A DNA stretch of 54,629 nt from a candidate division FCPU426 bacterium (lineage in GTDB: Bacteria > Oederibacteriota > JAJYGY01 > DAIDJD01). The DNA lies in the NCBI GenBank assembly GCA_027451505.1, contig DAIDJD010000013.1, positions 1-54,629 on the forward strand, given 5' to 3'. Shown one piece after another: positions 6,462 through 42,405 of the stretch (its first letter is position 1; the number at the start of each line of letters is the position of its first letter). The notes under the pieces are model-generated. The model worked only from the letters and a program-made list of their open reading frames with translations. It made no database searches and was not told the DNA's origin. A program made the position numbers and the translations under genes.

Positions 6462-6470
6462 GCGTCCTCC

Positions 6471-9811: not shown

Positions 9812-9915
9812 CCGCCACCTCGAGGGCCGTCTTGGTCCGTACCCAAGGATACCTAATTTTCAAAGCGAAAGCGGCGTGGCGCCAAAAAAAGATTCCCCCC
9901 AAGACTCTGCGCGGC

Positions 9916-17324: not shown

Positions 17325-17357
17325 AGGGTCCCTTCGGCTGCGGGGAGGGCGACGGCA

Positions 17358-26790: not shown

Positions 26791-27666
26791 TCACTCTTCT
26801 CCTTCGTCTCCTTGAGCTTTCGATGGTTGCGACGGCTCGGAGCCCGGCTTTTCGGGCTGCAACAGGCCGTCGATGCCTGTGTAGGGGTTGAACCGGCTGC
26901 TCAACGGCCGGTTGGCCAAGTTGGCTCCGGTGGGGAACCCGAAACCGTTGCGGCCATCGTCGTAGCCGCGGTAGCCGACCCGGTTGCCGAAGTCGTCGCC
27001 GCGGTTGCCGGCGGCGCCCCGGTCCCGGTACCCGCCGCCGCCGCCGTTGTTGCCGCCGCGGTACCCGCCTCCACCTCCGCCGCCGCGGTAGTCGTAGCCG
27101 TTGCCCATGGTCACCGGGCGGGATTCGTTGCGGAAAGGCTGACGCGTCTGCGGTTCGCGGGGTTCCCGCCCCTCGCGCGGCTCCCGCGGCTCCCGCGGCT
27201 GGCGGGGTTCCCTGGCGTCGCGTCCTTCCCGTCCCTCACGCCCGTCGCGTCCCTCCCTCGCTTCGCGCCCATCGCGCCCCTCCCGGGGCTCGCGGTGTTC
27301 GCGGAACTCGCGGTCCTCATCCTCGTCACCGCTGCCGTGCTGCCCGGGAGGCAAGGGCGCGCAGGCCTTCTCCGCGTCCACGCCGAGCTCCTCGCAGCGC
27401 TTCCTGAATTCCTCGATGGCGTTGGCCTGCACCAGTTCCTTCAGGCCGCGCTCCATGTAGTAATAGTCCTCGAAGCCCTTGACCGGCTGGCCCTCCCGCT
27501 TGCGGCTGGGAAAGCTGAGGTAGAGGCCGTTGGCGCCCCGCACCAGGGCCATGCTGTTCAGGAACAGCGCGCCGGCCTCGGTGATGATTTTGCAGCTGAC
27601 GAACGCCGCGGTCTTGCTGTTCTCCCCGTGCACCATGTGGATGCGGAGGTTTTCAAAAGCAGGCAT
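26791..27666 (-). CDS. SpoVG-like N-terminal domain fused to an RE-triplet/RGG-YG low-complexity tail
   Basis: ATG at 27666 with GGGAG upstream; 291 aa. The first ~95 aa follow the SpoVG pattern (…AFVSCKI…ALVRGANGLYLSFPSRK…). Residues ~119-172 are (R-E/D-x)n, and residues ~186-244 are GGGGGGGYRGG…GYRGYDDGRNGFGF. Confidence 0.6.
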   Translation of the reverse strand: MPAFENLRIHMVHGENSKTAAFVSCKIITEAGALFLNSMALVRGANGLYLSFPSRKREGQPVKGFEDYYYMERGLKELVQANAIEEFRKRCEELGVDAEKACAPLPPGQHGSGDEDEDREFREHREPREGRDGREAREGRDGREGREGRDAREPRQPREPREPREGREPREPQTRQPFRNESRPVTMGNGYDYRGGGGGGGYRGGNNGGGGGYRDRGAAGNRGDDFGNRVGYRGYDDGRNGFGFPTGANLANRPLSSRFNPYTGIDGLLQPEKPGSEPSQPSKAQGDEGEE

Positions 27667-27833
27667 GGCTGCTCCCAACAATGATGGACGCGTCCAGACA
27701 TAAGGTTCCGGACCCCACCGCCGCGAAAACCGCGGCGGGCCTTCCAAACGCCCCGGGCCACCGGCCCAGGGCGTGCCCACCGATCAACGCATGGATCGCC
27801 TCCTGGGGTCCCCTCCGCGGCCCGGATGGGCGC

Positions 27834-28762: not shown

Positions 28763-29872
28763 TCAACGCCCGGCTCCCCGGCCCGCCGGGGGCGGGGAGC
28801 GCTCCAACGCCAGCATGCGCTTCAAGATGGCGATGCGCTTGGCGATTTCCGCGGCCCTCCGGCTGGCCGGGAACAGCCGTTCATACTTCTCCCAATAGGC
28901 CAGGGCCTCCCGCTTGCGGTCGAGGCGTTCCAGGACCACGGCCGCGTTGACGTAGGCCGCCGCGTCCCAGGGCGCCACCTGCAGGGCGAGCTGGTACATG
29001 TTCAAGGCGTGCTCGATGCGGTCCTCCCGGTCGTAGATCAGCCCCAGGTTGAAGTAGGCGTTCTCGAGCGTGTCCTCGTCCTTGGGATGGCGGCGCACCA
29101 CCCAGGCGTTGAGCCGCTCGGCCGCCTTGAGCCGGCCCTCGAGGAAGTACACGGCCGCCAGGTTCTGGGCGGCCCCGAGGTCGTCGGGGTCGAGCTTCAG
29201 GACGCGGTGGTAGTCCTTCTCGGCCGCGCCGAGGTCCTTGAGCTTCAGGTAGACGCCGCCCCGGTTGAAGCGGGTGATGGTGTCGCGGGGGTTGATCTCA
29301 AGGGCGTCGGCGTACTGCTTCAGGGAGGCGTTCTCCTTGCCCTCGTCGTCGTAGACGTTCCCGAGGCTGGAATGCAGGCCCCCATGCCGGGGGGCCAGGG
29401 CCAACCCCTTGAGCGCCGCCTTCTCGGCCTGCGGCAGGCTGCCCTTCCAGCCCTCCACCACGCTGAGGTCGTAGAGGCTCTTGGTGTCCTTGGGATCACG
29501 GCGGATCGCGCTTTGGAAGCAGGAGATCGCGGCGTCGAAATCGTCGTCCAGGGCGTAGGACGAGCCGAGGTTGCGCCACAGGGTTGCGTTGGCGGGGTCC
29601 TTCTTCACCGCATCGGCCAGGAGCTGGATGCTGCGGCGGAAATCCCCGCGCCGGTAAAAATACGCGCCCCAAGCCGCCTCGCCCTGGGGAGCGGTCGCCG
29701 TCGGCGCCGCGCCGGGGGCCGTCCCGAAGCGCACGATGCGCTGGTCCGGCGCAGGGGCGGAGGGGCCCGCCGCCGCGGGGACGGGCCGCTGCAAGGTGGT
29801 GCACCCCGTCCCGACGAGGGCCACGCAACCCGCGGCGAACGCGGCTCCGGCGGCGCGCAGGGAAACCCTCAC
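28763..29872 (-). CDS. TPR-repeat lipoprotein
   Basis: The GTG at 29872 overlaps the upstream TGA (GTGA). Lipobox-like ALVGTGC. At least 7 TPR-like units (…A..Y..ALE.NP…). Confidence 0.75.
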   Translation of the reverse strand: MRVSLRAAGAAFAAGCVALVGTGCTTLQRPVPAAAGPSAPAPDQRIVRFGTAPGAAPTATAPQGEAAWGAYFYRRGDFRRSIQLLADAVKKDPANATLWRNLGSSYALDDDFDAAISCFQSAIRRDPKDTKSLYDLSVVEGWKGSLPQAEKAALKGLALAPRHGGLHSSLGNVYDDEGKENASLKQYADALEINPRDTITRFNRGGVYLKLKDLGAAEKDYHRVLKLDPDDLGAAQNLAAVYFLEGRLKAAERLNAWVVRRHPKDEDTLENAYFNLGLIYDREDRIEHALNMYQLALQVAPWDAAAYVNAAVVLERLDRKREALAYWEKYERLFPASRRAAEIAKRIAILKRMLALERSPPPAGRGAGR

Positions 29873-30405
29873 CTGGCCCCCTGTCCCGGCCCGCTTCGGC
29901 CCACTTCGGTGAGGGCCCCGATGAACCGGGAATGCATGTCGCGGCAACCGTCCAGGCAAAGGTGCACCAGGGCACGGTCGTCGGCGGCGCCGCACAGGCG
30001 CGTGAACGCATCGGCCACGGCGAGATGTGGGTCCTCCGGGTGGAGCCCTTCCCGGAGCGCTTTGGAATAGGCCTTCATGCGCCCTCCCAGGACCATCACC
30101 GCGGTCTCTCCCTCGGCGGCGAACCGCTCCAGGAGGCCCTCGGCCAGCCTACGCACGTAGAGAACATGGTACTGCTCCAGGCCTTCGGGCCTCAGTCCCA
30201 GGCGCTCCAGCATGCCGGTCCCGTACTCCAATCCGAGGGCCGCCTTCAGCATGAAGAACTCGTGCAGCACTCGGGCCGGGTCGAGCCCGCCGGCGGCGAA
30301 GGCCGCCGCGTCGCACCGGCGCACCTCCTCCTCGGAGGGGGGCAGCCAGGCCATGACGCCCTCGACCGCGTCCAGGGTGCTGAAATCATCCTTGAGAAAG
30401 CCCAT
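29869..30405 (-). CDS. Hypothetical helical protein
   Basis: I recognise no family. GC-rich third positions, embedded in the operon. The start is either ATG 30405 or GTG 30420. Confidence 0.5.
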   Translation of the reverse strand: MGFLKDDFSTLDAVEGVMAWLPPSEEEVRRCDAAAFAAGGLDPARVLHEFFMLKAALGLEYGTGMLERLGLRPEGLEQYHVLYVRRLAEGLLERFAAEGETAVMVLGGRMKAYSKALREGLHPEDPHLAVADAFTRLCGAADDRALVHLCLDGCRDMHSRFIGALTEVGRSGPGQGAR

Positions 30406-30413
30406 GCCACAGT

Positions 30414-31625
30414 CTACCACGCTCGGCGGCGCGCGCCAGCGAGCAGGGACCCCTCCAGCACCCGGACGTTCCGGTCCCAGTCGTAGGAGGAGCGCACGAG
30501 CGCCAAGGCCCTCCGGGCCAGGGCCGGTCCCGGGGATCCCGGCGCCATCAGCCTTAGGACCGCAGCCGCGAAGGCCTCCGGATCACGGGCCACCAGCAGG
30601 TGCCGCCCGTCGTCCGCCTCGGCACCCTCCGCGGCCAGGGGCGTGGCCACGCTGGGCAGGCCCGCGGCGAAGGCCTCGAGGAGCTTATTCTGGCGGCCGG
30701 CGCCCCCCAGAACCGGACACAAGCCCACCCCCGCCCCCCACAACAGCGGGCGGGTATCCGGGACAAACCCCAGGAAACGTACCCCGGGGCGTCCCGCCAG
30801 GCGGGCCAGGCGGGACGGCGCGCCGCCCCCGGCCACGGACAGACGCGCGCCGGGCTGGCCCCGAAGCACGCGCGGGAGAACCCGCTCGACGAACCACTCC
30901 ACGGCCTCGGAGTTGGGGCGGTAGGCCAGGTTCCCCACGAACACCATGGACCTCGGGTCGCGGCGGTTCGCCGGGGGCGGGGCGAAACCGGCCGCGTCGA
31001 CCCCGTTGGCGGCCACCAGCAGCCGGCCCGCCGCCTGCGGCGCCATCGCGGCCACCGCGTCCCGGTCGCCGCAGGCGTTGAAGAATCCCCCGTCGAACTG
31101 GACGGCGCAGAAGGCCTCCAACGCGGCCAGGCGGCGCGCCTGCGCCTGGGCGAAGGCCGCGGCCAGGGGCCTACCCGAGGCGACATGGGCCGCGGCCTCG
31201 CGTTCGGCGACCCGGGTCATGGAATCGGTGTAGTCGAGGAAGCGCGGACCCCTCCAGCGCAGGGCATAGGGCGCCATTTTCAGGCGGTAGGCCAGGACCG
31301 CGTCGAAGCGGGGCCCGTTCCGGGCCAACGCGTCGATCCAACGGCGCATCCCGGCGTCGGAATCCGCGGCCACCGACACGGGCCAGGGGCCGGCCAAGGC
31401 CAGCGCCGCGGCCAAGCGACGGTCCCAGACCCCGCGCGGGAAACGCCGGACCGAGGCCGTTCCGGCAGGAGGAACTGAGGAGGCCCCGGCCGCCCCGGAA
31501 ACGTCCAGGCAGGCGAGGTGGATTTCATGCCGATGCGACAGACGTTCCAACCAATGGAACAGGCGCAGCCTATCCCCATCGCTGGGAGCGTCCGGTACCA
31601 CCGGTGCCAGCACCAGGAGCCTCAT
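30414..31625 (-). CDS. GT4-family glycosyltransferase
   Basis: 403 aa. The N-terminal MRLLVLAPVVP…GDRLR and the C-terminal EAFAAGLPSVATPLAAEG (E-x7-E region) are typical of GT4. Confidence 0.85.
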   Translation of the reverse strand: MRLLVLAPVVPDAPSDGDRLRLFHWLERLSHRHEIHLACLDVSGAAGASSVPPAGTASVRRFPRGVWDRRLAAALALAGPWPVSVAADSDAGMRRWIDALARNGPRFDAVLAYRLKMAPYALRWRGPRFLDYTDSMTRVAEREAAAHVASGRPLAAAFAQAQARRLAALEAFCAVQFDGGFFNACGDRDAVAAMAPQAAGRLLVAANGVDAAGFAPPPANRRDPRSMVFVGNLAYRPNSEAVEWFVERVLPRVLRGQPGARLSVAGGGAPSRLARLAGRPGVRFLGFVPDTRPLLWGAGVGLCPVLGGAGRQNKLLEAFAAGLPSVATPLAAEGAEADDGRHLLVARDPEAFAAAVLRLMAPGSPGPALARRALALVRSSYDWDRNVRVLEGSLLAGARRRAW

Positions 31626-31658
31626 GCCCGCCCCCAGGATCGGACCGCGGACCCGGCC

Positions 31659-32792
31659 TCACCCACCGTACAGCTCCGCGCTGCGGCGGACCATGGCATC
31701 GTAGGAGAATTCCGGCGCCACACCGGCCCGGGCCGCGCGGCCCATGCGGCGCCTCAACCCGGAGTCGTCCAGAAGCTCACCCACGCGGTCGGCCAAGGCC
31801 TCGGGATCCCTGGGCTGGCAGAGGTAGCCATTGACGCCTTCGCGCACGATCTCCGCGGCCCCGTCGACCTGGGTGGCCACCACCGGGATGCCCAGGCTCA
31901 GCGCCTGGGGCAGGACGCACGGCAGCCCCTCGAACAGGGAACACAGCAGGAACACGTCGAAGCCCGCGGCCAGGCGCCGGGGATCGTCCCGCCAGCCCAG
32001 GAAGCGCACCCGGTCCCCCACGCCCAGGTCGACGGCCAGCGCCCGGGCCGCCTCCAGCAGCGGCCCGCCGCCCACGTACACGAAATCGACGTCCCGCCGG
32101 TCCGCGGCCACCAGGGCGGCCGTCCTCACGAAGTCGAGGGGGGCCTTCTGGGGCTTGAGGTTGGCCACCACGCCGACGACCCTGGGGCGCAGCCCCGGCA
32201 CCGCGGCGGCCAGGAACGCCCGGGAACGCCGGGTTCCGGACCAGGCCGCCAGGTCCACGCCCGCGCGCACCAGGGCGTAACGGTCGCTGCGCCCGATCCC
32301 GTGGAAGAGCCCTTTTTCACGCAGGCTCGCGGCCACCACCACCAGGACGTCCGTGGCCCGGGCCAGGACCCGCTCCAAGGCCACGAAGAAGCCGAACACG
32401 GGCGCGCTCTGGAAGTCGTTGAAGGACCATCCGTGGACCGTGTGCAGGACCTTGGGGGTCCGCGCGAGCCAGGCGGCGGCCCGTCCCAGAAGTCCGGCCT
32501 TGCTGGAATGGGTGTGCACGATCTCGATCCGGTGGCGGATGAGGTAGGCCCACAGCCACGCCGCCGCCAGGAAGTCCCTCAGCGGGGAGACCGGATGCAC
32601 CATCCACGGGACCGGCACCAGGCGCTTCCCCAGGGCGCCGGAGGCCCGGGCATCCAAGGCGCCCCCGCGGCCCGCCAGCAGGCGCACATCGAAGCGGCCC
32701 GGATCCAGGCGCAGGGCCGTTTCCAGGGCCGCCTCCTGGGCCCCGCCCAGGTCCAGACGGGTGACGATGATGGCGATGCGGATGGGGCTCAT
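31659..32792 (-). CDS. GT4-family glycosyltransferase
   Basis: ATG at 32792 (IRIAIIVTRLDLGGAQ…). C-terminal SLFEGLPCVLPQALSLGIPVVATQVDGAAEIV. The track start at 32993 is over-extended. Confidence 0.85.
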   Translation of the reverse strand: MSPIRIAIIVTRLDLGGAQEAALETALRLDPGRFDVRLLAGRGGALDARASGALGKRLVPVPWMVHPVSPLRDFLAAAWLWAYLIRHRIEIVHTHSSKAGLLGRAAAWLARTPKVLHTVHGWSFNDFQSAPVFGFFVALERVLARATDVLVVVAASLREKGLFHGIGRSDRYALVRAGVDLAAWSGTRRSRAFLAAAVPGLRPRVVGVVANLKPQKAPLDFVRTAALVAADRRDVDFVYVGGGPLLEAARALAVDLGVGDRVRFLGWRDDPRRLAAGFDVFLLCSLFEGLPCVLPQALSLGIPVVATQVDGAAEIVREGVNGYLCQPRDPEALADRVGELLDDSGLRRRMGRAARAGVAPEFSYDAMVRRSAELYGG

Positions 32793-33035
32793 CGGGACCT
32801 TGCCGACGAAAAGGGGGCCCGGAAGCTTGCCCGGAACAGGGGGGAGGTATAGGTTGGATGGGTCGCGGGAACTGGGGCCGGCGGAAGGTGGTCGTCCCCA
32901 GATTGCGCGAGCCGGGCCGGTTCCGCCAACCCCTCCCACCCGGCGGAGCCGGTCCGGTACCAATCGAGTTCCGTTGAATGGTACGGAATCCAAATTCGTC
33001 CATTCCTCGCTCTTTGATACCGCCTATTAAAATTC

Positions 33036-34340
33036 TTAGGCCCGGGCCGCAGCTTCGACTCCCTGCCAGATCGCGTCCTCCATGGCCGAATATTCCCAAC
33101 GCCCCCAGCGCCCCACGCTGAGAATGCCCTGGGATTTCAACCAAGCCTGGATCAGCCCCACGCTCGGCCCGCGGTCGGCGTCGTAGACGACGTAGGCATC
33201 GCGGATGTCGGCCACCCATTGGGCCGCGATCCGGTCCCCCGGCCGCAGCAATCCCATGCTCCGCAGGCCCCGAACCACCCTCCCGGGTGCCGCGGCCTTG
33301 TCGATGGGCCGGCCCGGGCCGTAGCTGATTTCGGCGTAGAGGCTGGAGCCGCCCCGGGGAGCCAGGGCCCGGCTGAAATTGTGGTAGAAGCCCACCCGGT
33401 AGAACGGCAAGCCGGGGTCGGGCACGTAGATCCACTGCTTCGAGCAGATGTCCCGGTTGGACACCCCCAGGTTCACGTTCAGCACGCTCGAGGCGCGCAG
33501 CCGGGCGGCCGCCCTGCGCACCGAGGCCGGGGCGCCCCGGACCATCGCCACCAGCCGCGGGAGCGGCATGGTGGAGACTAGGCGGCCGTAGCCGACCGTC
33601 CCGCCGTCGGCGAAATGGACGCGCCGCCGGGACGGGTCCACCCGGACCGCTTCGGTCCGGGTGCGCGTCTCCACGCGGTCGGCGAAGGCCCGCGCGAGCA
33701 CCTCGATGCCCGTGTGCCGGGGATAGAGAAAGTCCGCGTTGTAGCCAGTGGGCCGGGGCAGGTCGAACAAGGCCCCCTCGAAGATCTCCGAAAGCCCGGG
33801 GCGGGGCACGAAGCGCCCCATGAATTCGGTGGTCATGGCCGACGGGTGCACGCCCCAGAGCTTGGCGTTGTAGGGCTCCATGAAGCGGCGGTAGATGCCC
33901 TCGCCGAAGTGCTCCAGGTTGAACGCCTCGAAGCTTCCTTTGGGCCCCTCCGCGCGGGGCCCGGGAAGCGCCCGATGGGCGCGCAACGCGCCTTCCAGGC
34001 ACTCGCGGACCACGTCCGGTGGGAGCCCGTGGAGCCGGGACTGGAACGGGGCGCGGGTGGTGCGTCCGTGGGAATAGACCCACGCGTCCCTGCGGACCGG
34101 GACGAAATCGCGCCGCAGCCCCAGTTCGTCGAGGACCAGGGCCCGCGTCTCGGGCCTGCTCAGGTGCAAAAGATGGCCGGTGTAGTCGAAGCAGAATCCC
34201 CCGACCCGCTCGCTGCGCACCAGGCCGCCAGGACGGGATTCCTTCTCGAAGAGCAGGCAGGCCGTTCCGGCCTTGCGGGCGTGGTAGGCCGCGGACAGGC
34301 CGGCCAGTCCGGCGCCGAGCACGACCAAGGGACCGCGCAC
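33036..34340 (-). CDS. FAD-dependent oxidoreductase (amine-oxidase/protoporphyrinogen-oxidase/UDP-galactopyranose-mutase-like fold)
   Basis: GTG at 34340. VVLGAGLAGLSAAYHARKAG…EKESRPGGL dinucleotide-binding motif; 434 aa. The substrate cannot be inferred by eye. Confidence 0.75.
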   Translation of the reverse strand: MRGPLVVLGAGLAGLSAAYHARKAGTACLLFEKESRPGGLVRSERVGGFCFDYTGHLLHLSRPETRALVLDELGLRRDFVPVRRDAWVYSHGRTTRAPFQSRLHGLPPDVVRECLEGALRAHRALPGPRAEGPKGSFEAFNLEHFGEGIYRRFMEPYNAKLWGVHPSAMTTEFMGRFVPRPGLSEIFEGALFDLPRPTGYNADFLYPRHTGIEVLARAFADRVETRTRTEAVRVDPSRRRVHFADGGTVGYGRLVSTMPLPRLVAMVRGAPASVRRAAARLRASSVLNVNLGVSNRDICSKQWIYVPDPGLPFYRVGFYHNFSRALAPRGGSSLYAEISYGPGRPIDKAAAPGRVVRGLRSMGLLRPGDRIAAQWVADIRDAYVVYDADRGPSVGLIQAWLKSQGILSVGRWGRWEYSAMEDAIWQGVEAAARA

Positions 34341-34346
34341 AGGCGC

Positions 34347-35273
34347 CTAGGGCTTCGCCGGGCCGGGCGCCGGCGCAGGCTGGTCGGCGGGGGCCGGGGC
34401 CTCCTCCGCGTCCTGCATGCCCGGGGACAAAAGCCTGAGGCGCATGCCCACGATGGTGCCGGGGAAGTGCGCCACCCGGCTCTGCCTCAGCTCCCCGCCT
34501 CGAAGGGCCACCGAGGCGTCCCCGGAGAGGCACACCAGCTCCCCTCCCGTCTTGCTGGCGGTCGCCAACAGGGTGTTGAGCAGGCCCGGGCGCAGGGTGC
34601 CGTCGGGATTGCGCACCTTCAGCATCAGCGCCGCCACGATGGCGTCCGCGTCCCCCCGGATCGACTCGCGCACCCCCGGGAGCCGGGACAGGCTGGCGCG
34701 CACGCCCTGGCCGTAGTCGGCCACGGCCAACTCGACGACCCCGTTCTTCGGGAAGGCCTGGCCGCAGAGCATGGCCCCGCTGTGTCCCTTGGCGTGGCGG
34801 AAGACGTTGTCGCCCAGGCCGAGGAAGATCTGCATCACCCGTTCGAAGTCCGCCCGCGTGGCCGGGAGAACCCCGCGCAGCAGGTTCACCAGGCGCGGGA
34901 TGGCGCCCTCCAGTTCCTCGGGGCGCGCCACCAACCAGAGCTCCTGGGGGCGCTCGGCCATCTTCTCGCCGGTGAAGACGTTGACGCTGCCCTCCTGAAG
35001 CAGCCGGTACAGCCCCATGCGCATGAGGTCGTTGCTGACGCGGCCGTTCTCGGGGCGTCGGATGACGCTTCCCGAGGCCAGCCGCTGCCGGGACACGAGG
35101 TGGGCCAGGCAGGCACCCAAGCCGGCCACGCCGAACGCCGAAAGCTTCTGCGTGTCGGTCAGGTCCACCGTGAGGCTTTCCCCCTGCGGGACCGAGAGCA
35201 TGCGGGACAGGGCCTCGCTGACGAACCCTGGGTGCTCCATCGCCAACACCGACGGGAAATGGATCTCCTTCAT
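34347..35273 (-). CDS. GHKL-type (HATPase_c-like) ATP-binding protein with an uncharacterised N-terminal domain
   Basis: The ATG at 35273 (GGAG upstream) overlaps the upstream TGA (ATGA). N-box-like LGDNVFRHA, G1-like VADYGQGV; 308 aa with a Pro/Ala-rich tail. No His phospho-acceptor domain seen. Confidence 0.55.
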   Translation of the reverse strand: MKEIHFPSVLAMEHPGFVSEALSRMLSVPQGESLTVDLTDTQKLSAFGVAGLGACLAHLVSRQRLASGSVIRRPENGRVSNDLMRMGLYRLLQEGSVNVFTGEKMAERPQELWLVARPEELEGAIPRLVNLLRGVLPATRADFERVMQIFLGLGDNVFRHAKGHSGAMLCGQAFPKNGVVELAVADYGQGVRASLSRLPGVRESIRGDADAIVAALMLKVRNPDGTLRPGLLNTLLATASKTGGELVCLSGDASVALRGGELRQSRVAHFPGTIVGMRLRLLSPGMQDAEEAPAPADQPAPAPGPAKP

Positions 35274-36358
35274 AGGCTCCTCTTGGGTGCGCCCCGGACC
35301 GCGGCGGGCGGGGCGGCGTCGTGGGGCATGGGAATCCCCATGAGCCCGACGGCCGCCGCCAGGGCCGCCAGGCAAAGCAGGGACCACACCAGTGCGGCGG
35401 GTCCGGGGTCCAGGAACGAGGCCCCATAGACCAGCAGGCCGACGGACAGGGTGAGCGCCGACGACGCGACTGCCACGACCGGCACCGAAAGGCCCAGGGC
35501 CCGCAGCCTCAGGGCGGTGTGGTCCGGGCTCCCCTTCCAGGGGGGCAGCCCCCGCCGCGTCCGGATCACGATCATCAGCGCCAGGTCGAACAGCGGCAGG
35601 AACAGGATGGCCAGGGGGGACAGCACCGCCAGCACGTTCTGGTGGGAATAGCGCAGGTTCAGGCTGAGCGCGGCCAGGGTGAATCCGAGGAAGTGCGAAC
35701 CGGCGTCCCCCATGTAGATGCGCGCGGGCCTCCAGTTGTGCGGCAGGAACCCGAGGCAGGCCCCGGCCAGCGCCGCGGACGCCAGGGCGTCGTCGGCGCG
35801 CCCGGCGTGGAGCGCGAAGGCGAGCAGGGCCAGGGCCGCGGACAGGCAGACGCTGGCCGCCAGCCCGTCGAGGATGTCCACGAAATTGAGGGCATTGGTC
35901 ACCGTGACCACCCACAGCACCGTGAGCACGATGCTGAGCCAGCTCTGGTGCACGAAACGCACGCGCAATCCGCAGGCCGCCAGCACCAGGGCCCCCAGGA
36001 CCTGGCCCGCGAGCTTGGCCCCGGGCGTCAGGGCCCGCCGGTCGTCGAGCAGACCCAGCACCAGGGCCAGGCAGCCGCCCAGGCCTATGGCGTAGACGCC
36101 GCGGCCCCGCTCCAGGCCCAGGGGCCAGGGGGCGAAGCCCCGGCTTCGCGCGACCGTGAACTTCAACGCCAGCACCGCCGCCCCGAAGGCCGCGGCGATG
36201 GCCACCCCGCCGAGATAGGCCACCGGCTCGCGCTGCACCTTCAGCGGCGTGTTGGGGCGGTCCAGGAAGCCGGTGCGCCAAGCCACCCGGATGGCCACCG
36301 GGGTGAGGAGACCCGACAGCAGGGCCGCGGCGGCGAAGGCGGTCAGAGGGATGGGCAT
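35270..36358 (-). CDS. MraY/WecA-family polyprenyl-phosphate sugar-1-phosphate transferase
   Basis: ATG at 36358; 362 aa, multi-TM. Motifs LLDDRRAL, VTNALNFVDILDGLA and PARIYMGDAGSHFLGF. Confidence 0.85.
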   Translation of the reverse strand: MPIPLTAFAAAALLSGLLTPVAIRVAWRTGFLDRPNTPLKVQREPVAYLGGVAIAAAFGAAVLALKFTVARSRGFAPWPLGLERGRGVYAIGLGGCLALVLGLLDDRRALTPGAKLAGQVLGALVLAACGLRVRFVHQSWLSIVLTVLWVVTVTNALNFVDILDGLAASVCLSAALALLAFALHAGRADDALASAALAGACLGFLPHNWRPARIYMGDAGSHFLGFTLAALSLNLRYSHQNVLAVLSPLAILFLPLFDLALMIVIRTRRGLPPWKGSPDHTALRLRALGLSVPVVAVASSALTLSVGLLVYGASFLDPGPAALVWSLLCLAALAAAVGLMGIPMPHDAAPPAAVRGAPKRSL

Positions 36359-36393
36359 GCGGGGATCGCGGGCCTCCAGGTCGGCGTCGCGGC

Positions 36394-38406
36394 TCAGCGG
36401 ATGCGCGCCACGAAGGCGCCGCCGAGGTCGAGGCGTTGCGTCCGCGGCAGCGCGCGGAGCGCCGCGACCCACGCCATAAAGCGGGCCTCGGCTTGGGCGT
36501 CGCCGACGGGCCAGTAGGGTTGCTCGGATCCGGTTCGCAACTGGCCCATCCAGGGTCCGAAGTTGAAATACACGAAATCATACCCCTTCGCCCGCACCCT
36601 GGCATCCACCTCCTGGGGCGAGCGCGCCCGTCCCACCCACTCGGCGAGGGGATGCCGGTCGTAGACGCTGGCCGCCAGGCAATCCGGGGGCAGGTACGCC
36701 GTGCGTTCGTCCCCCAGGACCAGGACCCCGGCCCCTTCGGGTTTCTGCGCCAGGATCCAGGCCCCGACGGCGGCCTGGGGCACCCCCATGCGCCCGAGGT
36801 AAGCCTCCGGCGCCTCCAAGCCCAGGGCCACGGGCAGGGGATCGAAATCCTTCACCGCGATGGCCAAGGTCTGGGCCGCGGTGAACAGCAGGCCGGCCAC
36901 CACGAGCCCCTGCCAAAGGCGCGCCCATCCGCGGGAGGCGGCCCTGGTTTCGGCTTCCGAAACCCCATGCGCCGCCAAAAGCGCGGCCGCGGGAACCAGG
37001 CAGACGCCGTAACGCAGGACATGGGGACCGAGAAGCCAGCCCAGGCATCCCAGCCCAAGGTAGGCCAGGATCCAACGCAAGGGTCGGTCCAGCCGCCCCG
37101 TGAGGCAGGCCGGCGCCAGGGCCAACAGGAGCACCCCCAAGATGCCGTCCGCGCCGAGGCTGCCCGCGTCGAAAAACGCGGCCCAGGGGAGGCGCACCCA
37201 AGCCCACAACCCGCGCCCGCCGAAGCCGCCCACGTGCCGGAAGTAGGAGGCCGGCCCCCCGTCGAAGAACGTCAGCCCGAACAGGCGCAGGGGGAACGGA
37301 TAAAAGGGCTGCCCCTTGAGCGCCAGGCCCTGGGCCATCCAGGGGACCAAGGGCACCAGGAAAAGGCCGACCGCCGTGAACAGCAGGCCGGGACGGCGCC
37401 AGGACCGTTCCCGCCAGGCCAAGGTCCCCAGCAGCGCCAGCAACGCGGCGGCGTGGATGAGCGCCACGGGCTTGCACGCCACCGCGGCGCCGGCCAGCAG
37501 GGCGCTGAGCAGGATCCAGGAGTCCTGGGTCCGGCGGACCGGGTCCACCAACCCCAGCAGGAAGGCGTCCAGGGAGGCGAAGGCGAAGAACACGGACCAG
37601 GCGTCGGGGGAGAAGACCCCGAAGCTGAGGGCGAGGAGGGGCTGGGTCAGGGCCAGAGCCGGCGCCATCCAGATGCGTCGTTCCTGGAAGAGCCGCGCCG
37701 AGGCATCCACGAGCAGCAGGCCCAAGGCCCCATAAAGGGCCAGGTCCAGCAGCCCGGCGGCCTGGGCCGAGACCCTGGGGGAGCCGTCCACGGCGAGGGC
37801 CCAGGCCCACACCGGCGTGGGCAGGGAGGGCAGCCAGGTGAAAAGGACATGGTCCTGGGGCCTCAGCCAACCGGAAGCGGCCGCGTGCTGGGCCTGGGCC
37901 AGGTGGTAGACCAGCGCATCGAAGAATTTCGGGGGGGCCAGGCACATCGCCGCCACCGGAAGCGCGGCCAGGGCCAGGGCCAGGACGGTGGCCACCTCGA
38001 GGCTCGAGCCGGACCACGGGCGCTTGGAGCGCAGGCTGCGGCGCAGCGTCTCGCCCAGGGACTCGGCGTGGCCCCAGCACACCAGGCAGATGACGCCCAA
38101 CAGGGCCCGGCACAGCCACGGATAGAGGGCCCCGGCCGCGCCGATGGCCGAACCCAGCAGCGACAGCGCCAACAAACCCAGCGCCAGGCTGAGGACTGCC
38201 TCCTCCACGAGGGAACCGTGGAACAGCCGGAACCGGCGCAGGGCCAGGCGCCCCAGAAGCAGGGCCGTGAGCAGCACGCCCCCGGCGGAGGCGGCGGCGC
38301 CCGCCAACGCCGCGGCGCCGCCCAAGGGTACGGGATAGCGCCAAGCCTCCACGGCCAGGAGGCCCGCCAACCAGGCCAGCAGGATCAGGAATTTGAGCCG
38401 CCGCAT
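36394..38406 (-). CDS. Large polytopic membrane protein, GT-C-like, with a C-terminal soluble domain
   Basis: 670 aa; at least 12 predicted hydrophobic segments. Early-loop motif PPKFFDALVYHL. The C-terminal ~130 aa are soluble. The family assignment is tentative. Confidence 0.6.
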   Translation of the reverse strand: MRRLKFLILLAWLAGLLAVEAWRYPVPLGGAAALAGAAASAGGVLLTALLLGRLALRRFRLFHGSLVEEAVLSLALGLLALSLLGSAIGAAGALYPWLCRALLGVICLVCWGHAESLGETLRRSLRSKRPWSGSSLEVATVLALALAALPVAAMCLAPPKFFDALVYHLAQAQHAAASGWLRPQDHVLFTWLPSLPTPVWAWALAVDGSPRVSAQAAGLLDLALYGALGLLLVDASARLFQERRIWMAPALALTQPLLALSFGVFSPDAWSVFFAFASLDAFLLGLVDPVRRTQDSWILLSALLAGAAVACKPVALIHAAALLALLGTLAWRERSWRRPGLLFTAVGLFLVPLVPWMAQGLALKGQPFYPFPLRLFGLTFFDGGPASYFRHVGGFGGRGLWAWVRLPWAAFFDAGSLGADGILGVLLLALAPACLTGRLDRPLRWILAYLGLGCLGWLLGPHVLRYGVCLVPAAALLAAHGVSEAETRAASRGWARLWQGLVVAGLLFTAAQTLAIAVKDFDPLPVALGLEAPEAYLGRMGVPQAAVGAWILAQKPEGAGVLVLGDERTAYLPPDCLAASVYDRHPLAEWVGRARSPQEVDARVRAKGYDFVYFNFGPWMGQLRTGSEQPYWPVGDAQAEARFMAWVAALRALPRTQRLDLGGAFVARIR

Positions 38407-38418
38407 CGGGCCCCCGTT

Positions 38419-39633
38419 CTAGCCGCCGGCCCGGGCCGCGCGGACGTTGAGGACTTTGAGCCGGCGCCATTGGCCCGCCGACCAAGCCCACCATGCGAGA
38501 TTGGCCGCGGCCCACGCGAACATGAGGCCCGGGATCGGCCTGGGTGGGGCCCAGGCCGCGGAACCGGCCAGCACACCGGGCAGGACCAGCGCGTAGAAGC
38601 CGGCGGCCAGCGCCAGGGCCGGGACGCTCAACCGCAGGCACAGGCCCGGCGACCAAGCCAGGGCCAGGGCCGGCGCCCACAGCAGGTATTGCGGGGAAAG
38701 CCCGGGCGCCAGGAGCGCCAGGGTCAGCCCCGCCCAGGGGAGCGCCGCCGCCAGGCGCAGGTCGCGGGGGTGGGACACGGCCCAGGCGAAAGCCGCCGCG
38801 ATCAGCGCCAACGCCGCGTCCCGGTAGCCCGCGTCGGCGGCGCGCCACAAAGCCGGGTCCACCCTCAAGGCGAAGCAGGCGGCCCGCAGGGCCCCGGAGG
38901 GACCCAGGGCGTTGGCCCCGGTGTAGGCTAGGCGCTCCCACACCGGACGAAACCCGTCCGCGGCGATCCAGGGCAAAGGCAGCACCGCGGGCAGCGCCAG
39001 GGTCTTGGCTGCGAACCGCAGGCGGTCCCGCGGGGCCGGAAAGACGCCCATGAAGGCGGGCAGCAGGAGCGCGGGCCAAGTCTTGAGGGCCACCGCCAGG
39101 CCCAGGCACAGCGCCGCCCTCGACTCGCCGCGAGGATGGGGCGAATACTCCAGGAGCCAGGCCGCGGCCAGGACCAGGGCCAGGACCAGGGAGTCGAATT
39201 GCCCGTGGCCGGCGCCCACGATCCAGGCCAGGGGGTTGAGGACCCACACGGCGCCGGCGGCGAGCCCGGCGCGCCGGGGGTCGCCCATCGGCGTGGGGCC
39301 GGGAAGGCCCGCCCGGCGCGCCGCGAACAGATAGGCCAGGCAGGCCACGGCCGAATCCCCGGCCACCGCGGGAAGGCGGAACCAGACGCCCGGATCGCCC
39401 CCCCACCGGGAGGCCAGCCGGCCCAGGAGACGCACCAGGGCCCACCACGCCGGGAGGTAGGGATAGCGGCCCGCCAGGGCGGGCGAGACGTAGAGCCCGG
39501 CGGCGGGACAGGCCGCCACGCGGGCGTAGCTTTCCAGGTCGAACGGCGCGCCCCGGCTCAGGACCAACAACGGAAGGCGGACGCAGGCCGAGGCCAGGGC
39601 CAGCAGCGCGAGGTCGCGCGCCTTGGGACTCAC
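38419..39633 (-). CDS. Polytopic membrane glycosyltransferase-like protein (DUF2029/GT87-like)
   Basis: The GTG at 39633 overlaps the upstream TGA (GTGA). 404 aa, multi-TM, with an early acidic loop motif GAPFDLESYARV. Tentative. Confidence 0.6.
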   Translation of the reverse strand: MSPKARDLALLALASACVRLPLLVLSRGAPFDLESYARVAACPAAGLYVSPALAGRYPYLPAWWALVRLLGRLASRWGGDPGVWFRLPAVAGDSAVACLAYLFAARRAGLPGPTPMGDPRRAGLAAGAVWVLNPLAWIVGAGHGQFDSLVLALVLAAAWLLEYSPHPRGESRAALCLGLAVALKTWPALLLPAFMGVFPAPRDRLRFAAKTLALPAVLPLPWIAADGFRPVWERLAYTGANALGPSGALRAACFALRVDPALWRAADAGYRDAALALIAAAFAWAVSHPRDLRLAAALPWAGLTLALLAPGLSPQYLLWAPALALAWSPGLCLRLSVPALALAAGFYALVLPGVLAGSAAWAPPRPIPGLMFAWAAANLAWWAWSAGQWRRLKVLNVRAARAGG

Positions 39634-41141
39634 CTGCGTCGCGCCCCCAACAGGAACCCGGGCACCCCGGGGTCGGGGACGTACTGGGCCTCAAGCCCGT
39701 CCAAAAGGGCCTTTTGGAGCGGGACCTCACCCTTCAAGGGAAGGGTCAGCGCCGCCGCGCCCGTGGAGGGCGCCAGAAGCGAACCCAGCAGTTCCTCCTC
39801 CCCGCCGGGCCAGGGGGGCGCCTCGCCGGTGAAGGGATAGACGAACAGGAACCGATTGGCCGGCCGGCGCCGGGCGAGGTAATAGAGTTCCGCGTCGTCG
39901 CCCCAGAGGAACAGCGCCTTGTCCGCGGGGCACAGCCTCCGGATCCGGGCCGCGGCCTCCGGGGCGTTGGCGAAGCTGGTCACCCCGTAAAGCCGCAGGG
40001 TCCGTTGGGCGGCGCCGGGGCGCAGCCACAGGCCCGCGTCGCAATGCACATACCCGAGCACGGCCCAGGCCAACAGGCCCACCCGCAGGAACCTCGGGAA
40101 GCGCCGTGGGCTCCATCCCGGAAGCCCTTCGAGCAGACCGGCCAAGCCCAGACCGGCAAGCACGGCGACCGGAGGGGCCAGGGTGAGGGCGTAGTGCGGG
40201 TAAAAACGGCCCGAGGCGGCCAGGGAAACCAGTCCGACGCCCAGCCAGGCGGCCCAGGGTCCGCGCGGCGCGCCCGCGCGCCCGAGCGCGCGCCAGCCCA
40301 ACCAGGCCAGGGCGGCGAAAGCGCCCCACTCCGGGAGCAGCCAGCGGGCCAGCCCGAGGGCCCGGGGCAGGGCCCCGGAGATCCCCTGGAGCACGTACCC
40401 TCGGTCATAGACCAGCACGCAATCCAGGAAATCGGAGCCCGCCCCCCAGCGCTGGAGCAGGGCCCAGGCCGCGACCCAGGGCAGCAGGGCGCCCGCGGCG
40501 ATCCAAGCCGCGGCCCGGCCCCGGCCCCGGGGGCCCATGGCCCAAGGCAACAGGGCCACGCCGCAAAGGACGGGCTGCTTGAACAGCGAGGCGGCGCCCA
40601 GGCAGGCCCCCGCGCCCAGCAGCCGCACAGCCCCGGGGTCCGCATCCCCCGCGAAGGCCAGGGCGAAGGCCCCGGTCAGGGGCAGGGCCTGCCAGGATTC
40701 CGTGTTGGCGGCCAGGCCCTGGGCCCGGGCGCAGGAGAACAGCGCGCCCGCGGCCAAGGCCCCGAAACCGGCCGCGGCGGCGCGCGCACGCGGGTCCCGC
40801 GCCATCCGCTCCCCCAGGCGACCGCGCTCCCCCAGGCGCTCGACCAGCAGGAACAAGGCCACCGCGGCGGCCGCGGTCCAGCCCGCGGAAAGGATCCTCA
40901 GGCCGTGGACCCCGTCCCGGAACAGCGCCTGGGCCAGGGCGTACATGGCCGTGGCCAGCGGCGGTTTCTGCTCCAGGAAGTCCCGGTAGGGCACCCCCAG
41001 GCCCCTGCGCCAAAGCCACGCCAAGGTGGCGTATTCGCCCTCGTCGCGGTCCAGCAGCAGGTTCAACGACGGCAGGCGCAGGGCCAGCGCGAAGGCCGCC
41101 GCGGCCGCGGCCCAGACGAAACGCCGCAGGCGCGGGGTCAC
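39630..41141 (-). CDS. GT-C glycosyltransferase, ArnT/PMT (GT39/GT83)-like
   Basis: The GTG at 41141 overlaps the upstream TGA (GTGA). 503 aa, multi-TM. The first-loop motif LLDRDEGEYATLAW resembles the DE-x-x-Y motif of this superfamily. Confidence 0.72.
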   Translation of the reverse strand: MTPRLRRFVWAAAAAAFALALRLPSLNLLLDRDEGEYATLAWLWRRGLGVPYRDFLEQKPPLATAMYALAQALFRDGVHGLRILSAGWTAAAAVALFLLVERLGERGRLGERMARDPRARAAAAGFGALAAGALFSCARAQGLAANTESWQALPLTGAFALAFAGDADPGAVRLLGAGACLGAASLFKQPVLCGVALLPWAMGPRGRGRAAAWIAAGALLPWVAAWALLQRWGAGSDFLDCVLVYDRGYVLQGISGALPRALGLARWLLPEWGAFAALAWLGWRALGRAGAPRGPWAAWLGVGLVSLAASGRFYPHYALTLAPPVAVLAGLGLAGLLEGLPGWSPRRFPRFLRVGLLAWAVLGYVHCDAGLWLRPGAAQRTLRLYGVTSFANAPEAAARIRRLCPADKALFLWGDDAELYYLARRRPANRFLFVYPFTGEAPPWPGGEEELLGSLLAPSTGAAALTLPLKGEVPLQKALLDGLEAQYVPDPGVPGFLLGARRR

Positions 41142-42061
41142 GGCGCGCTTCCCCGCGGCTCCTGGCCCGGCCCGGGAAGCCCGGGCGCGTCCGGAAGGTA
41201 GGGGGCCGGGACCTCAATGCCCCGGGCCCGCCGCCCCAGATCCTCGCGGGTCTCCTCCGCGTCCCTGCGGCGCGCGGCTTGGAAATAACGGGCCAAGTCG
41301 CGGCGCGCGTCGTCCGGGCGGCCGAGGGCCGCGTCGGCCTTGCTCATCCCCCACCAGGCCTCGGGCCGCCAGGCCGGCAAGGCCAGGCAGCGGCGGTAGT
41401 CCCGCCGGGCGTCGCGGACCCGCCCCGAGTCCAGGAGCAGTTCGCCCCTGCGCAACAGGACTTCCCCGTTGTCCGGGTCGGCGGCGAGCGAACGCCCGTA
41501 ACAGATGAGCGCCCGGTCGTTCCTGCCGGCCAGCTCCCAGATCTGGCCGAGGTTCTCCCAGGCTCCGGCGTAATGCGGGTCCAGGCGCACGGCCTCACCG
41601 TAGCAGCGCCCGGCAAGTTCCAGCCGGCGGGCGTCCTCCTCCAGCATGCCCAAAAGGTTCCAGGCCCCGGCGTAGCGCGGCATCAGGCGCTCCCCCCGGC
41701 GGGCCGCCCACAGCGCCAGCGGGCGGTCGCCGCCTTGGCGTTCGTCCAGGGCGAGGGCGCAGTACGCCGGACCCAGACTGGGGTCGTGGCCCACCGCCAG
41801 GCGCTGGGCGTCCGCGGCGGCGCGGTAGTCCCCCAGCGCCGCCCGCGCCAGCCCCAGCCAATACCACGCCAGGGCCGAGGAGGGGGACCGCCGGGTGAGC
41901 GCCTCGAAGCGCTCCTGGGCAAGCTCCAGGCGTCCCGCGGCGAACAGGCGGGCTCCCTCCTCGCGCAGGGACCCGGCGGCGGGGCCGCGCCCCGCGCCGG
42001 GGGCGGCGGGAAGGGCGGCGCTGCCCAGCGCGGCCCATGCCAGCAACGCCCCGCGGATCAT
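41138..42061 (-). CDS. Secreted TPR-repeat protein
   Basis: 307 aa; ATG at 42061. Signal-like ALLAWAALGSAALPAAPG. Multiple TPR-like units (AWYWLGLARAALGDYRAA…, AGAWNLLGML…, AGAWENLGQIWE…). Confidence 0.75.
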   Translation of the reverse strand: MIRGALLAWAALGSAALPAAPGAGRGPAAGSLREEGARLFAAGRLELAQERFEALTRRSPSSALAWYWLGLARAALGDYRAAADAQRLAVGHDPSLGPAYCALALDERQGGDRPLALWAARRGERLMPRYAGAWNLLGMLEEDARRLELAGRCYGEAVRLDPHYAGAWENLGQIWELAGRNDRALICYGRSLAADPDNGEVLLRRGELLLDSGRVRDARRDYRRCLALPAWRPEAWWGMSKADAALGRPDDARRDLARYFQAARRRDAEETREDLGRRARGIEVPAPYLPDAPGLPGPGQEPRGSAP

Positions 42062-42405
42062 CAGCTTTTTTTGGATTGGGTCTGGTAGGCCTGCGCGGCC
42101 AGGCGTCCGAGCAGGGGCAGGTTGGGGTCTTCCTTGTCCAGGCCGGCCGCCTTGACGTAGCGCTCCTGGAGGTCCTTCAAAAGCGTGTCCAGGACGCGCT
42201 CCTCCTGGGGGCTGCGGCGGCCCTCGGTCTTGCGCTTGAGCCCGCTGAGCAGGTTGATGAACTGGCGGGCCCGGGGAAGGTTGACCGTGCCGTCGGGCTT
42301 GCCGGCCTTGCGTTCGCCCAATTCAGCGGCCGCCGTCGAGGCCACCAGGGTCACCAAGTTGATGAACTCGAGGTCTTCCGGTTCCTCGGGGACGGTCTCG
42401 GGCAT
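42061..42405 (-). CDS. DUF1844-family protein
   Basis: ATG at 42405 with GAGGG upstream; 114 aa. The pattern FINLVTLVASTAAAELG…ARQFINLLSGLKRKTEGRRSPQEERVLDTLLKDLQERY fits my memory of DUF1844. Confidence 0.65.
   Translation of the reverse strand: MPETVPEEPEDLEFINLVTLVASTAAAELGERKAGKPDGTVNLPRARQFINLLSGLKRKTEGRRSPQEERVLDTLLKDLQERYVKAAGLDKEDPNLPLLGRLAAQAYQTQSKKS

Follow-up and report, generated by a model that had tools for sequence, protein, structure and literature searches.

We analysed a stretch of 54,629 nucleotides from a candidate division FCPU426 bacterium (positions 1 to 54,629 of contig DAIDJD010000013.1, assembly GCA_027451505.1; this whole stretch is called the window hereafter) and focused on 12 minus-strand genes between positions 28763 and 42405, which appear to encode an envelope glycosylation system. 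In the direction of transcription, these genes encode a DUF1844 protein, an exported protein with tetratricopeptide repeats (TPR), three membrane proteins assigned here to the GT-C class of glycosyltransferases (mem503, mem404 and mem670), a polyprenyl-phosphate sugar-1-phosphate transferase of the PNPT (MraY/WecA) family (PGT), a GHKL-fold protein, a flavoenzyme resembling UDP-galactopyranose mutase (UGM) and, beyond a non-coding spacer, two glycosyltransferases of family GT4 (GT4a and GT4b), a conserved hypothetical protein and a TPR lipoprotein. Coding frames were chosen by third-position GC, at a GC content of ~72% for the window, and the gene order agrees in all 12 positions with that given in a preliminary description made from the sequence alone. 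Five of the gene junctions overlap by 1-4 nt, as had been noticed before, a single one by 1 nt and the others by 4 nt, and from the DUF1844 gene through to the UGM-like gene every junction is either a short gap or an overlap. Pfam also upheld the earlier family calls for the DUF1844 protein, both TPR proteins, the PF00953 transferase, the flavoprotein (Amino_oxidase) and the two GT4 enzymes.

The flavoenzyme (33036..34340), previously labelled an FAD oxidoreductase, proved to be a full-length homologue of solved UGMs of the eukaryote type. It matches the UGM of T. cruzi (4dsg) over its full length with E 6.3e-48 and that of A. fumigatus (AfUGM) with E ~1e-35, whereas bacterial Glf is reached only at ~3e-3. 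The bacterial Glf equivalog was missed by far (21.7 bits against NCBIfam TIGR00031, cut-off 303.75), and a Glf identity was therefore rejected. We compared the enzyme with the ligand contacts of AfUGM (Table 3 of PMC3624792), the numbering of which was validated against the PDB chain, and found 14 of 21 contacts to be identical. These include G62-H63 of the histidine loop, F106, Q107 and F158 around the uracil, Y317, R327, Y419 and Y453 at the diphosphate, and further N163, W167, N207 and R447, while G456 of AfUGM is deleted. The retained contacts are invariant in the orthologues of the locus, and nearly all of them are present in the Elusimicrobia and Rokubacteria versions described below. 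Since the uridine, diphosphate and histidine-loop contacts are conserved, we expect with high probability that the enzyme binds a UDP-sugar and works by UGM chemistry, and it probably makes a UDP-furanose. UGM homology and the conserved UDP and flavin contacts thus lead us to predict a furanose, probably Galf-like (galactofuranose), as a component of the product. The product had been called unpredictable, a judgement that now holds for the final acceptor, be it a lipid, a wall polymer or a protein, and no longer for the furanose. Equally, the locus had been said to lack any nucleotide-sugar synthesis gene, which the presence of this nucleotide-sugar-modifying UGM homologue contradicts.

The initiating step can be assigned by sequence to PGT (35270..36358), which matches PF00953 with 122.6 bits (cut-off 27), has MraY and GPT as its best PDB matches and carries the motifs D105-D106, NALNFVDILDG (155-165) and MGDAGS (216-221), as expected of an initiating enzyme of the PNPT (WecA/MraY) family. 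Its designation as a WecA-type initiator is thus correct for the family but not for WecA proper, which was rejected as an identity: PGT scores 75 bits against the WecA equivalog TIGR02380 (cut-off 326), and the HIHH motif of HexNAc recognition is absent, with SPDHTAL in its stead. GT4a (31659..32792), with matches to Glycos_transf_1 and Glyco_transf_4, is a predicted cytoplasmic enzyme of the GT-B class, and GT4b (30414..31625; Glyco_trans_1_4, 92.9 bits) is a second GT4, which is kept in the related loci L001 and L043-L045 and on the P0047 contig. The best NCBIfam matches of GT4b, GT4a and the TPR lipoprotein, namely TIGR03087 (stp1; 205 bits, cut-off 316), stp2 (132 bits, cut-off 409) and PrsT (92 bits, cut-off 312), recall the PEP-CTERM/XrtA exopolysaccharide system. 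This assignment was rejected, because all three matches stay below their cut-offs and the window contains no exosortase; it also contains neither EpsI nor Wzx/Wzy, and no PEP-CTERM protein was seen.

The membrane proteins mem503 (39630..41141), mem404 (38419..39633) and mem670 (36394..38406) do not themselves reach any Pfam or NCBIfam threshold. The family labels attached to them in the preliminary description were therefore guesses awaiting a test, and their assignment to the GT-C class needed family alignments and a structure model. On this basis the assignment held for all three, for mem503 by its model and for mem404 and mem670 by Pfam-positive relatives together with profile-profile alignment (hhalign).

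The mem503 family consists of ~50 proteins, all from metagenomes or metagenome-assembled genomes (MAGs), in which the motif D31-R-D-E-G-E36, with D31, D33 and E34, is invariant; PMT_2 is matched by 11 of 43 members and GT87 by six of the 43. The AlphaFold2 (AF2) model built from the family alignment (pLDDT 96.3, pTM 0.93) confirmed the GT-C fold, for which such a check had been proposed. In Foldseek, ArnT was the best match (E 1.4e-7, TM 0.60/0.56), followed by STT3A, PglB, ALG9, AftB and EmbB with probability 1.00, after which the matches fell sharply to unrelated transporters. The protein also has a C-terminal soluble domain, and its structural match to PglB/STT3 covers the membrane core only. 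By its model, mem503 is thus an ArnT-like GT-C glycosyltransferase. ArnT (GT83) proper was rejected as its identity, as there is no Pfam PMT/PMT_2 match in the protein itself and no arn gene in the window or the related loci.

For mem404, with 354 representative relatives, GT87 was matched by 34 of the 50 relatives aligned (best match 5e-12) and PIG-M by nine of them, while mem404 itself scores 18.5 bits against PF09594 (GT87; cut-off 25); D32 of its FDLESY motif is invariant in the family. mem670 has ~30 close relatives and connects, at E 1e-12 to 1e-24, to proteins with PMT, PMT_2 and DUF8201 domains, some of these proteins being annotated as 'phospholipid carrier-dependent glycosyltransferase' or 'ArnT family glycosyltransferase'. 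Within the mem670 family, PMT_2 is matched by seven and PMT by five of 38 members, with TMEM260-like matches as well, and P158, D163 and H168 are invariant. Its acidic motif lies near residue 160 in every family member, behind an N-terminal extension of roughly four helices; this extension is the only point for which we used Kyte-Doolittle topology, as such counting under-calls Ala-rich helices. The three acidic motifs reported before (DRDEGEY, FDLESY and FFDALVYH) are present, each with an invariant Asp, although the one in mem670 belongs to the first loop of the GT-C core and not of the protein. Accordingly, mem503, mem404 and mem670 all have the conserved acidic residue by which GT-Cs are recognised, located in the first loop of the core on the extracytoplasmic side.

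Profile comparison by hhalign aligned the Asp motifs of the mem503 (A1) and mem404 (A4) families with a probability of 96.9% (E 1.7e-10), gave 94.5% for the mem503 and mem670 (A2) families, which have the C-terminal soluble domain in common, and 68% for the mem670 and mem404 families; across the three families the loop Asp and a downstream Lys are in register. By these comparisons the three proteins are mutually related, and mem404, as a GT87/PIG-M-like enzyme, and mem670, as one of the PMT/PMT_2/DUF8201 type, are, as judged from sequence, GT-C glycosyltransferases as well. GT-C relatives of the locus also match the Alg6_Alg8, Alg9-like and PIG-M families. Profile searches of the PDB sequences with the three families gave no match, so that solved GT-Cs can be reached only by comparing folds or by way of Pfam-positive relatives. 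Two further identities were rejected: oligosaccharyltransferases of the STT3/PglB/AglB type (GT66), as the WWD of a WWDYG-type motif is absent from all three proteins, and PMT (GT39) for mem670, as the protein has no Pfam match and its family no MIR matches. By analogy, the three GT-Cs are presumed to use polyprenyl-phosphate-linked donors.

The cytoplasmic core of the locus extends far beyond the lineage of the window. A metagenome scan with the UGM-like alignment yielded at least 579 relatives, and we counted same-strand neighbours in the best 80 of these at least 579 loci, minus two of the window's own lineage and with the loci of sufficient flank as denominator. A PGT homologue abuts the UGM-like gene upstream in 27 of 48 loci, a GT4a homologue abuts it downstream in 23 of 52, and the full PGT-UGM-GT4 cassette is present in 17 of 37. 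Homologues of eukaryote-type UGMs are thus, as these sequence comparisons show, common in environmental bacteria and usually adjoin a phosphoglycosyl transferase. Directly upstream of PGT, a mem670-like GT-C stands in seven loci outside the lineage, namely L039, L042 and, with 295-504 bits to the A2 profile, L084, L093, L104, L116 and L118. L118 and L092 have PMT/PMT_2 genes behind the cassette. Taken together, the loci just named make at least eight outside the lineage in which the cassette has a mem670-like or PMT_2 GT-C as a same-strand neighbour. Two of them, the Elusimicrobia-type loci L039 (from an NCBI Elusimicrobia MAG) and L042, have the order GT2, mem670-like protein, PF00953 transferase and UGM-like enzyme, with identities of 40% for the transferase (E 1e-50) and 41% for the UGM-like enzyme (E 3e-84), and further PMT_2 genes, a GT4 and sugar-nucleotide genes upstream. 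The Rokubacteria locus L011 combines a DUF2142 GT-C and PMT_2 genes in tandem, of which one is mem503-like, with a nearby pair of GT2 and UGM-like genes. As judged from these sequences, the PGT-UGM-GT4 core is a widespread cassette that is often joined to PMT-type GT-C genes.

In most other loci the cassette is surrounded by genes for soluble GT4 and GT2 enzymes, methyltransferases, DegT aminotransferases, B12-radical-SAM enzymes and Asn-synthase-like proteins. Among the 25 most frequent families in the 108 neighbour ORFs of 13 cassette loci there is none of a flippase or polymerase, nor one of Wzz, ABC transporters or OPX proteins. The module is absent around the distant mem670 relatives P0089 (L038), P0099 (L040, from a Polarisedimenticolia MAG) and P0101 (L041). 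In several unrelated cassettes, a B12-binding radical SAM gene comes right after the GT4 gene (L058, 10719-12104; L066, 10478-11887; L072, 10435-11811), which suggests a further modification of the glycan, e.g. methylation, in those lineages. L042 also carries, upstream of its Elusimicrobia-type module at 2590-5615, SIS, nucleotidyltransferase and GHMP-kinase genes together with a GT2, an arrangement reminiscent of the nucleotide-heptose pathway.

The frequent pairing of the flavoenzyme with a carrier-charging enzyme, which is PGT in the 27 of 48 loci and GT2 in Rokubacteria, would also fit a different role: the flavoprotein could act as an oxidoreductase on a lipid-linked sugar, with PGT and the flavoenzyme jointly making the GT-C donor, in a role like that of DprE1, which acts in decaprenyl-phospho-arabinose synthesis. 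Some UGM sugar contacts do differ, and the Amino_oxidase superfamily consists mostly of redox enzymes. However, the uridine and diphosphate contacts of UGM listed above (F106, Q107, F158, Y317, R327, Y419, Y453) and its catalytic histidine loop are conserved, and there is no similarity to DprE1-type FAD_binding_4 enzymes, which makes such a role highly improbable in our view.

Within the lineage, the block recurs in at least nine related metagenome or MAG contigs and is collinear in L001/L002, L003, L004, L005 (in part), L043-L046 and the P0047 contig, at 37-70% identity. The comparison across related genomes that had been proposed earlier thus found the block conserved. In L001, the cytoplasmic enzymes are 66-70% identical, compared with 49-58% for the GT-Cs. 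Distant homologues of mem503 (24-30% identity, mostly in Rokubacteria/Methylomirabilota) occur without the rest of the block.

The cytoplasmic 308-aa protein encoded between PGT and the UGM-like enzyme (34347..35273) is specific to this lineage: its 62 homologues are all at least 48% identical, and the gene was seen nowhere else. Pfam and NCBIfam gave no match, and none to the Pfam HATPase family. Nevertheless, the 'GHKL ATPase' of the preliminary description was upheld as regards its fold, both by the invariant N box (N156/H160) and G1 box (D186-x-G188-x-G190), which are accompanied by an invariant G272-T-x-x-G-x-R, and by Foldseek. The AF2 model (pLDDT 81.6) matched the CA domains of histidine kinases, CheA P4 and SpoIIAB (TMt 0.62-0.66, probability up to 1.00), the SpoIIAB match being the most compact. 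According to this model, the C-terminal half of the protein has the GHKL/Bergerat ATP-binding fold and is SpoIIAB-like. The N-terminal ~105 residues form an alpha/beta domain with an invariant Ser45 and resemble STAS domains by motif (VDLTDTQKVSAFGVAALG, S45) and by the beta-alpha-beta topology of the model only; a profile search of the PDB with residues 1-112 matched no STAS entry. The gene of the GHKL protein overlaps the PGT gene by 4 nt, and the simplest role to assume for the protein is that of regulating initiation.

Both TPR proteins appear, from their N-terminal sequences, to be exported. The first (307 aa; 41138..42061), with multiple TPR Pfam matches, has signal-peptide-like N-termini in the window and in all orthologues; its gene overlaps that of mem503 by 4 nt and is always upstream of mem503 in the relatives. 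The TPR lipoprotein (369 aa; 28763..29872), also recognised by TPR Pfam matches, is encoded by the last gene of the block, which overlaps the upstream gene by 4 nt, and it has a conserved lipobox Cys (VGTGC, MLGAC, FSAC) followed by TTLQRP. In eukaryotic TMTC enzymes, TPR domains recognise substrates. A comparable association exists in the mem670 homologue P0087 (847 aa, from a metagenome; E 5.6e-24), where TPR_1/TPR_2 repeats and DUF8201 are fused, while TPR proteins and GT-Cs are separate genes at the locus.

These features bring to mind a protein O-glycosylation system of the PMT/TMTC type, in which the GT-Cs would glycosylate Ser/Thr of exported proteins from lipid-linked donors and the TPR proteins would recognise the substrates. 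The relatives of mem670 match PMT, PMT_2 and TMEM260-like families and have, in common with the known enzymes PMT (GT39), TMTC1-4 and TMEM260, a conserved D-x-x-x-Y-H-type loop motif; exported TPR proteins flank the block, one of them coupled to a GT-C; and a secreted, Thr/Pro-rich repeat protein with N-G-T sequons is encoded in the window. On the other hand, mem670 itself is below the Pfam threshold, has a four-helix N-terminal extension and, outside the membrane core, shows no MIR domain or other mark of a PMT. The PMT systems known so far depend on a polyprenyl-phosphate-mannose synthase of family GT2, of which there is none here, whereas mem670 is linked to a cassette of PNPT, UGM and GT4 enzymes. 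Moreover, the repeat protein is encoded 24 kb away, and Foldseek ranks ArnT, an enzyme with a lipid acceptor, first for mem503. We therefore consider protein O-glycosylation rather unlikely as such; it is a special case of the carrier-based model proposed below, and its most attractive specific version.

The repeat protein itself (3688-4290, minus strand) has a signal peptide, ~7 tandem repeats ending in V/I, each with an N-G-T sequon, and a Pro/Thr/Ala-rich tail, without any Pfam match. It is a possible glycoprotein acceptor.

As had been reported, Wzx, Wzy, ABC exporter and OPX genes are absent from the scanned ORFs of the window, and so are GT2 and Wzz; the scan excluded the stretches at ~14.4-15.9 kb and 19.3-20.7 kb and the frame around 45.7-46.7 kb, in which there was no clean ORF. 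A polysaccharide locus dependent on Wzx/Wzy or an ABC transporter was rejected on these grounds. A lipopolysaccharide (LPS)-related locus would have to find Wzx, Wzy, WaaL or an ABC transporter elsewhere in the genome, with the GT-Cs as ArnT-like modifiers of lipid A or core or as Gtr-like O-antigen enzymes, and PGT and the GT4 enzymes making an O-antigen or core unit. ArnT as best structural match of mem503, the JGI annotation of some homologues as 4-amino-4-deoxy-L-arabinose transferase-like and the usual start of O-unit synthesis with a PNPT initiator and GT4 genes, which is established knowledge, would agree with such a function. It nonetheless has only a small chance of being correct in our estimate, since no arnA-F, Gtr, WaaL, Wzx, Wzy, Wzz or ABC genes occur in the window or the related loci inspected, no NCBIfam equivalog for LPS enzymes was reached, and three different GT-Cs in tandem correspond to neither an arn nor a gtr layout.

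No homology search placed the locus in a known pathway; such a placement would have spoken against the preliminary description. Its statement that the locus is of no recognised type still stands insofar as neither the family libraries nor the literature name such a pathway, but the core of the locus is the cassette that is widespread elsewhere. We found no paper on DUF8201, on this gene combination or on bacterial eukaryote-type UGM homologues in such a cassette, within an incomplete coverage of the literature. As judged from sequence, all enzyme families of the locus are known, and their combination does not appear to have been described before.

Several known systems share parts of its logic. 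Periplasmic glycosylation by three components is exemplified by GtrABC, ArnC/ArnEF/ArnT and teichoic-acid glycosylation, with a flippase of the GtrA type or ArnE/F. The prototype consists of a GT-A synthase, a GtrA-type flippase and a GT-C (PMC13390465). The locus resembles it in its GT-Cs with a conserved acidic loop motif and presumed lipid-phosphate donors on the outside, and in ArnT being the best match of mem503. Unlike these systems, it has no adjacent GT-A/GT2 synthase and no GtrA- or EmrE-like flippase in block or window, although L039 and L042, the Elusimicrobia-type loci, do have a neighbouring GT2. Its lipid-charging enzyme is a PNPT with a diphosphate-linked product, and it comprises three tandem GT-Cs, a UGM-like enzyme, two GT4s, and TPR and GHKL proteins.

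The mycobacterial and corynebacterial pathways of arabinogalactan and lipoarabinomannan start with a WecA-type initiator, draw UDP-Galf from a mutase, extend the glycan on polyprenyl diphosphate in the cytoplasm and employ several GT-Cs outside the membrane (AftA-D, Emb and PimE/GT87), a scheme which the locus would share; AftB and EmbB are in the Foldseek list of mem503, and mem404 is GT87-like. However, the UGM of the locus is of the eukaryote type and not bacterial Glf, and it contains predicted lipoprotein and TPR periplasmic proteins but no GT2 galactofuranosyltransferases, decaprenyl-phospho-arabinose pathway (UbiA, DprE1/2) or ABC exporter, so that the likeness is one of logic and not of orthology. 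Similarly, the eukaryotic and archaeal dolichol-linked pathway (ALG7/GPT, ALG2/ALG11, ALG3/9/12/6/8/10, STT3) combines a PNPT initiator, cytoplasmic GT4 extension and several GT-Cs on the far side, and GPT, ALG9 and STT3 are among the matches of the locus, as are Alg6_Alg8, Alg9-like and PIG-M among those of its relatives. Here too, the absence of a WWDYG-type motif and the presence of a furanose mutase set the locus apart, and the likeness seen is one of enzyme classes and their order.

Taken together, we propose with moderate confidence, from these sequence comparisons, that the locus forms a single operon interrupted by a variable slot and builds an envelope glycoconjugate on a polyprenyl-phosphate carrier. 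The UGM-like enzyme would convert a UDP-pyranose, probably UDP-Gal or a close analogue, into a UDP-furanose, and PGT would load a sugar-1-phosphate onto polyprenyl phosphate at the cytoplasmic face, where GT4a and then GT4b may extend this primer in at least one step with the furanose donor. Once a flippase encoded elsewhere has brought this short lipid-linked glycan across the membrane, mem670 could take over the cassette product on the periplasmic side and either transfer it to the acceptor or add the first periplasmic sugar; it is the best candidate for this task because mem670-like genes, the GT-C genes most frequently linked to the cassette in other lineages, lie directly upstream of the PGT gene in the seven loci outside the lineage. 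mem503 and mem404 might then elongate or branch the product with polyprenyl-phosphate sugars from a GT2 that is encoded elsewhere. Periplasmic scaffolding or acceptor binding may be the task of the two TPR proteins, the exported one coupled to mem503 and the lipoprotein, and the GHKL protein, translationally coupled to PGT, could exert an ATP-dependent control of initiation.

Several observations weigh against this proposal. The scanned ORFs of the window include no flippase, no GtrA-like protein, no polymerase, no exporter and no GT2 synthase of polyprenyl-phosphate sugars, and the periplasmic half of the model thus depends on unlinked genes. In the UGM-like enzyme, two of the contacts to galactopyranose (Galp) are altered, with N457 missing and R182 displaced by one position, and Y104 is substituted, so that the sugar may not be galactose. 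mem404 is missing from L004, a relative with 40% identity, where mem503 is directly followed by mem670 (1396-4896), and this middle GT-C is thus, by sequence, dispensable in part of the lineage. The flanks, including the CysNC, cold-shock (CSD) and DUF2203 genes, are as syntenic within the lineage as the block, and collinearity alone is therefore no proof of a functional unit. Finally, most cassettes elsewhere have no detectable GT-C within 6-8 kb.

The last two points, together with the variable slot and the low-GC spacer that split the block, might indicate that two units merely lie side by side, a GT-C/TPR group and an ordinary PGT-UGM-GT4 polysaccharide cassette, kept together by region-wide synteny. 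We regard this as quite unlikely, given that at least eight loci outside the lineage have mem670-like or PMT_2 GT-Cs as same-strand neighbours of the cassette, that Rokubacteria pair tandem PMT_2 genes with a GT2 and a UGM-like gene, and that short gaps or overlaps join every gene from DUF1844 to the UGM-like gene.

A single carrier-based operon, our preferred reading, leads to a bolder and more tentative idea, which we consider possible, if doubtful. The PNPT-UGM-like-GT4 cassette could be an unrecognised, widespread bacterial module that provides a furanose-containing polyprenyl-diphosphate glycan as donor or primer for PMT-like GT-Cs, and would thereby be a bacterial counterpart to the logic of ALG enzymes and oligosaccharyltransferase (OST), without a dedicated Wzx/Wzy or ABC route. 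In the lineage of the window, this module would be equipped with three GT-Cs, split TPR subunits for acceptor recognition and, as a gate on the initiating transferase, a SpoIIAB-like GHKL protein that has no relatives outside the lineage.

GT-C enzymes build mycobacterial arabinogalactan, lipid A modifications and protein N- and O-glycans. For most bacterial GT-C genes, however, we know of no donor, acceptor or partner. The locus ties three GT-Cs to a defined and widespread cytoplasmic cassette in which a PNPT initiator is combined with a homologue of eukaryote-type UGMs and with a GT4. This linkage offers a concrete, testable guess at the lipid-linked substrate of orphan GT-Cs, including a furanose, a sugar that is to our knowledge absent from mammals, and the lineage-specific GHKL protein may in addition control how the glycan is initiated. 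All of these functional steps are predictions, made for an uncultured host.

The remaining proteins of the block are presumably cytoplasmic. For the 114-aa DUF1844 protein (42061..42405; PF08899, 56 bits), encoded by the first gene, which overlaps the TPR gene by 1 nt, no signal peptide or transmembrane segment was detected; it is syntenic in L001-L005, L043, L044 and L046 and absent from the Elusimicrobia-type loci. The conserved hypothetical protein (29869..30405) likewise shows no signal peptide or transmembrane segment and has no Pfam, NCBIfam or PDB match. It is 64% identical to a 176-aa ORF of L043 and 43% to a 174-aa ORF of L044. Because the L043 alignment supports it, its gene most likely starts at the ATG at 30405 (178 aa), which leaves an 8-nt gap and not an overlap to the gene upstream.

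The lower-GC spacer of 243 nt noticed earlier between the UGM-like and GT4a genes (32793..33035) is real, with a GC content of 62.6% compared with 72.9% for the locus and of 43.8% in its first 80 nt. In relatives, the same slot of the operon is variable: it holds a GNAT gene and a small ORF in L043 (12215-13251) and L044 (12180-12896), a gene for a 175-aa secreted protein in L001 (18064-18591) and an insertion of ~2.2 kb in L003 (18168-20434). A decayed gene was rejected as the origin of the spacer, since tblastn with the slot ORFs of L043, L044 and L001 found no remnant. The spacer contains no sigma-70 consensus, and terminator-like sites are not enriched (10 found vs 8.1 expected).

The block is embedded in housekeeping genes, with a cold-shock protein, CysNC, a peroxiredoxin, an aminoacyl-tRNA synthetase and KdpDE on one flank and DUF2203, pyruvate dehydrogenase E1/E2/E3, Sua5 and an ADP-dependent sugar kinase on the other. 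The only Rfam match in the window is one tRNA gene (49959-50045, plus strand). A minus-strand gene at 26791-27783 encodes a protein with a SpoVG-like N-terminal segment (ALVRGANGLYLSFPSRK) and a low-complexity tail rich in Arg-Glu, Arg-Gly and Gly-Gly-Tyr, for which Pfam gave no match at E 1e-3. The gene of a third TPR protein, 644 aa long (7925-9859, minus strand), immediately precedes those of a histidine kinase (6471-8078) and a sigma-54-dependent response regulator (5112-6470). Lastly, the sugar kinase (15882-17357, minus strand) belongs to the ADP-dependent phosphofructokinase/glucokinase family (PF04587, 229 bits), which is best known from archaea and is found here amid bacterial housekeeping genes.

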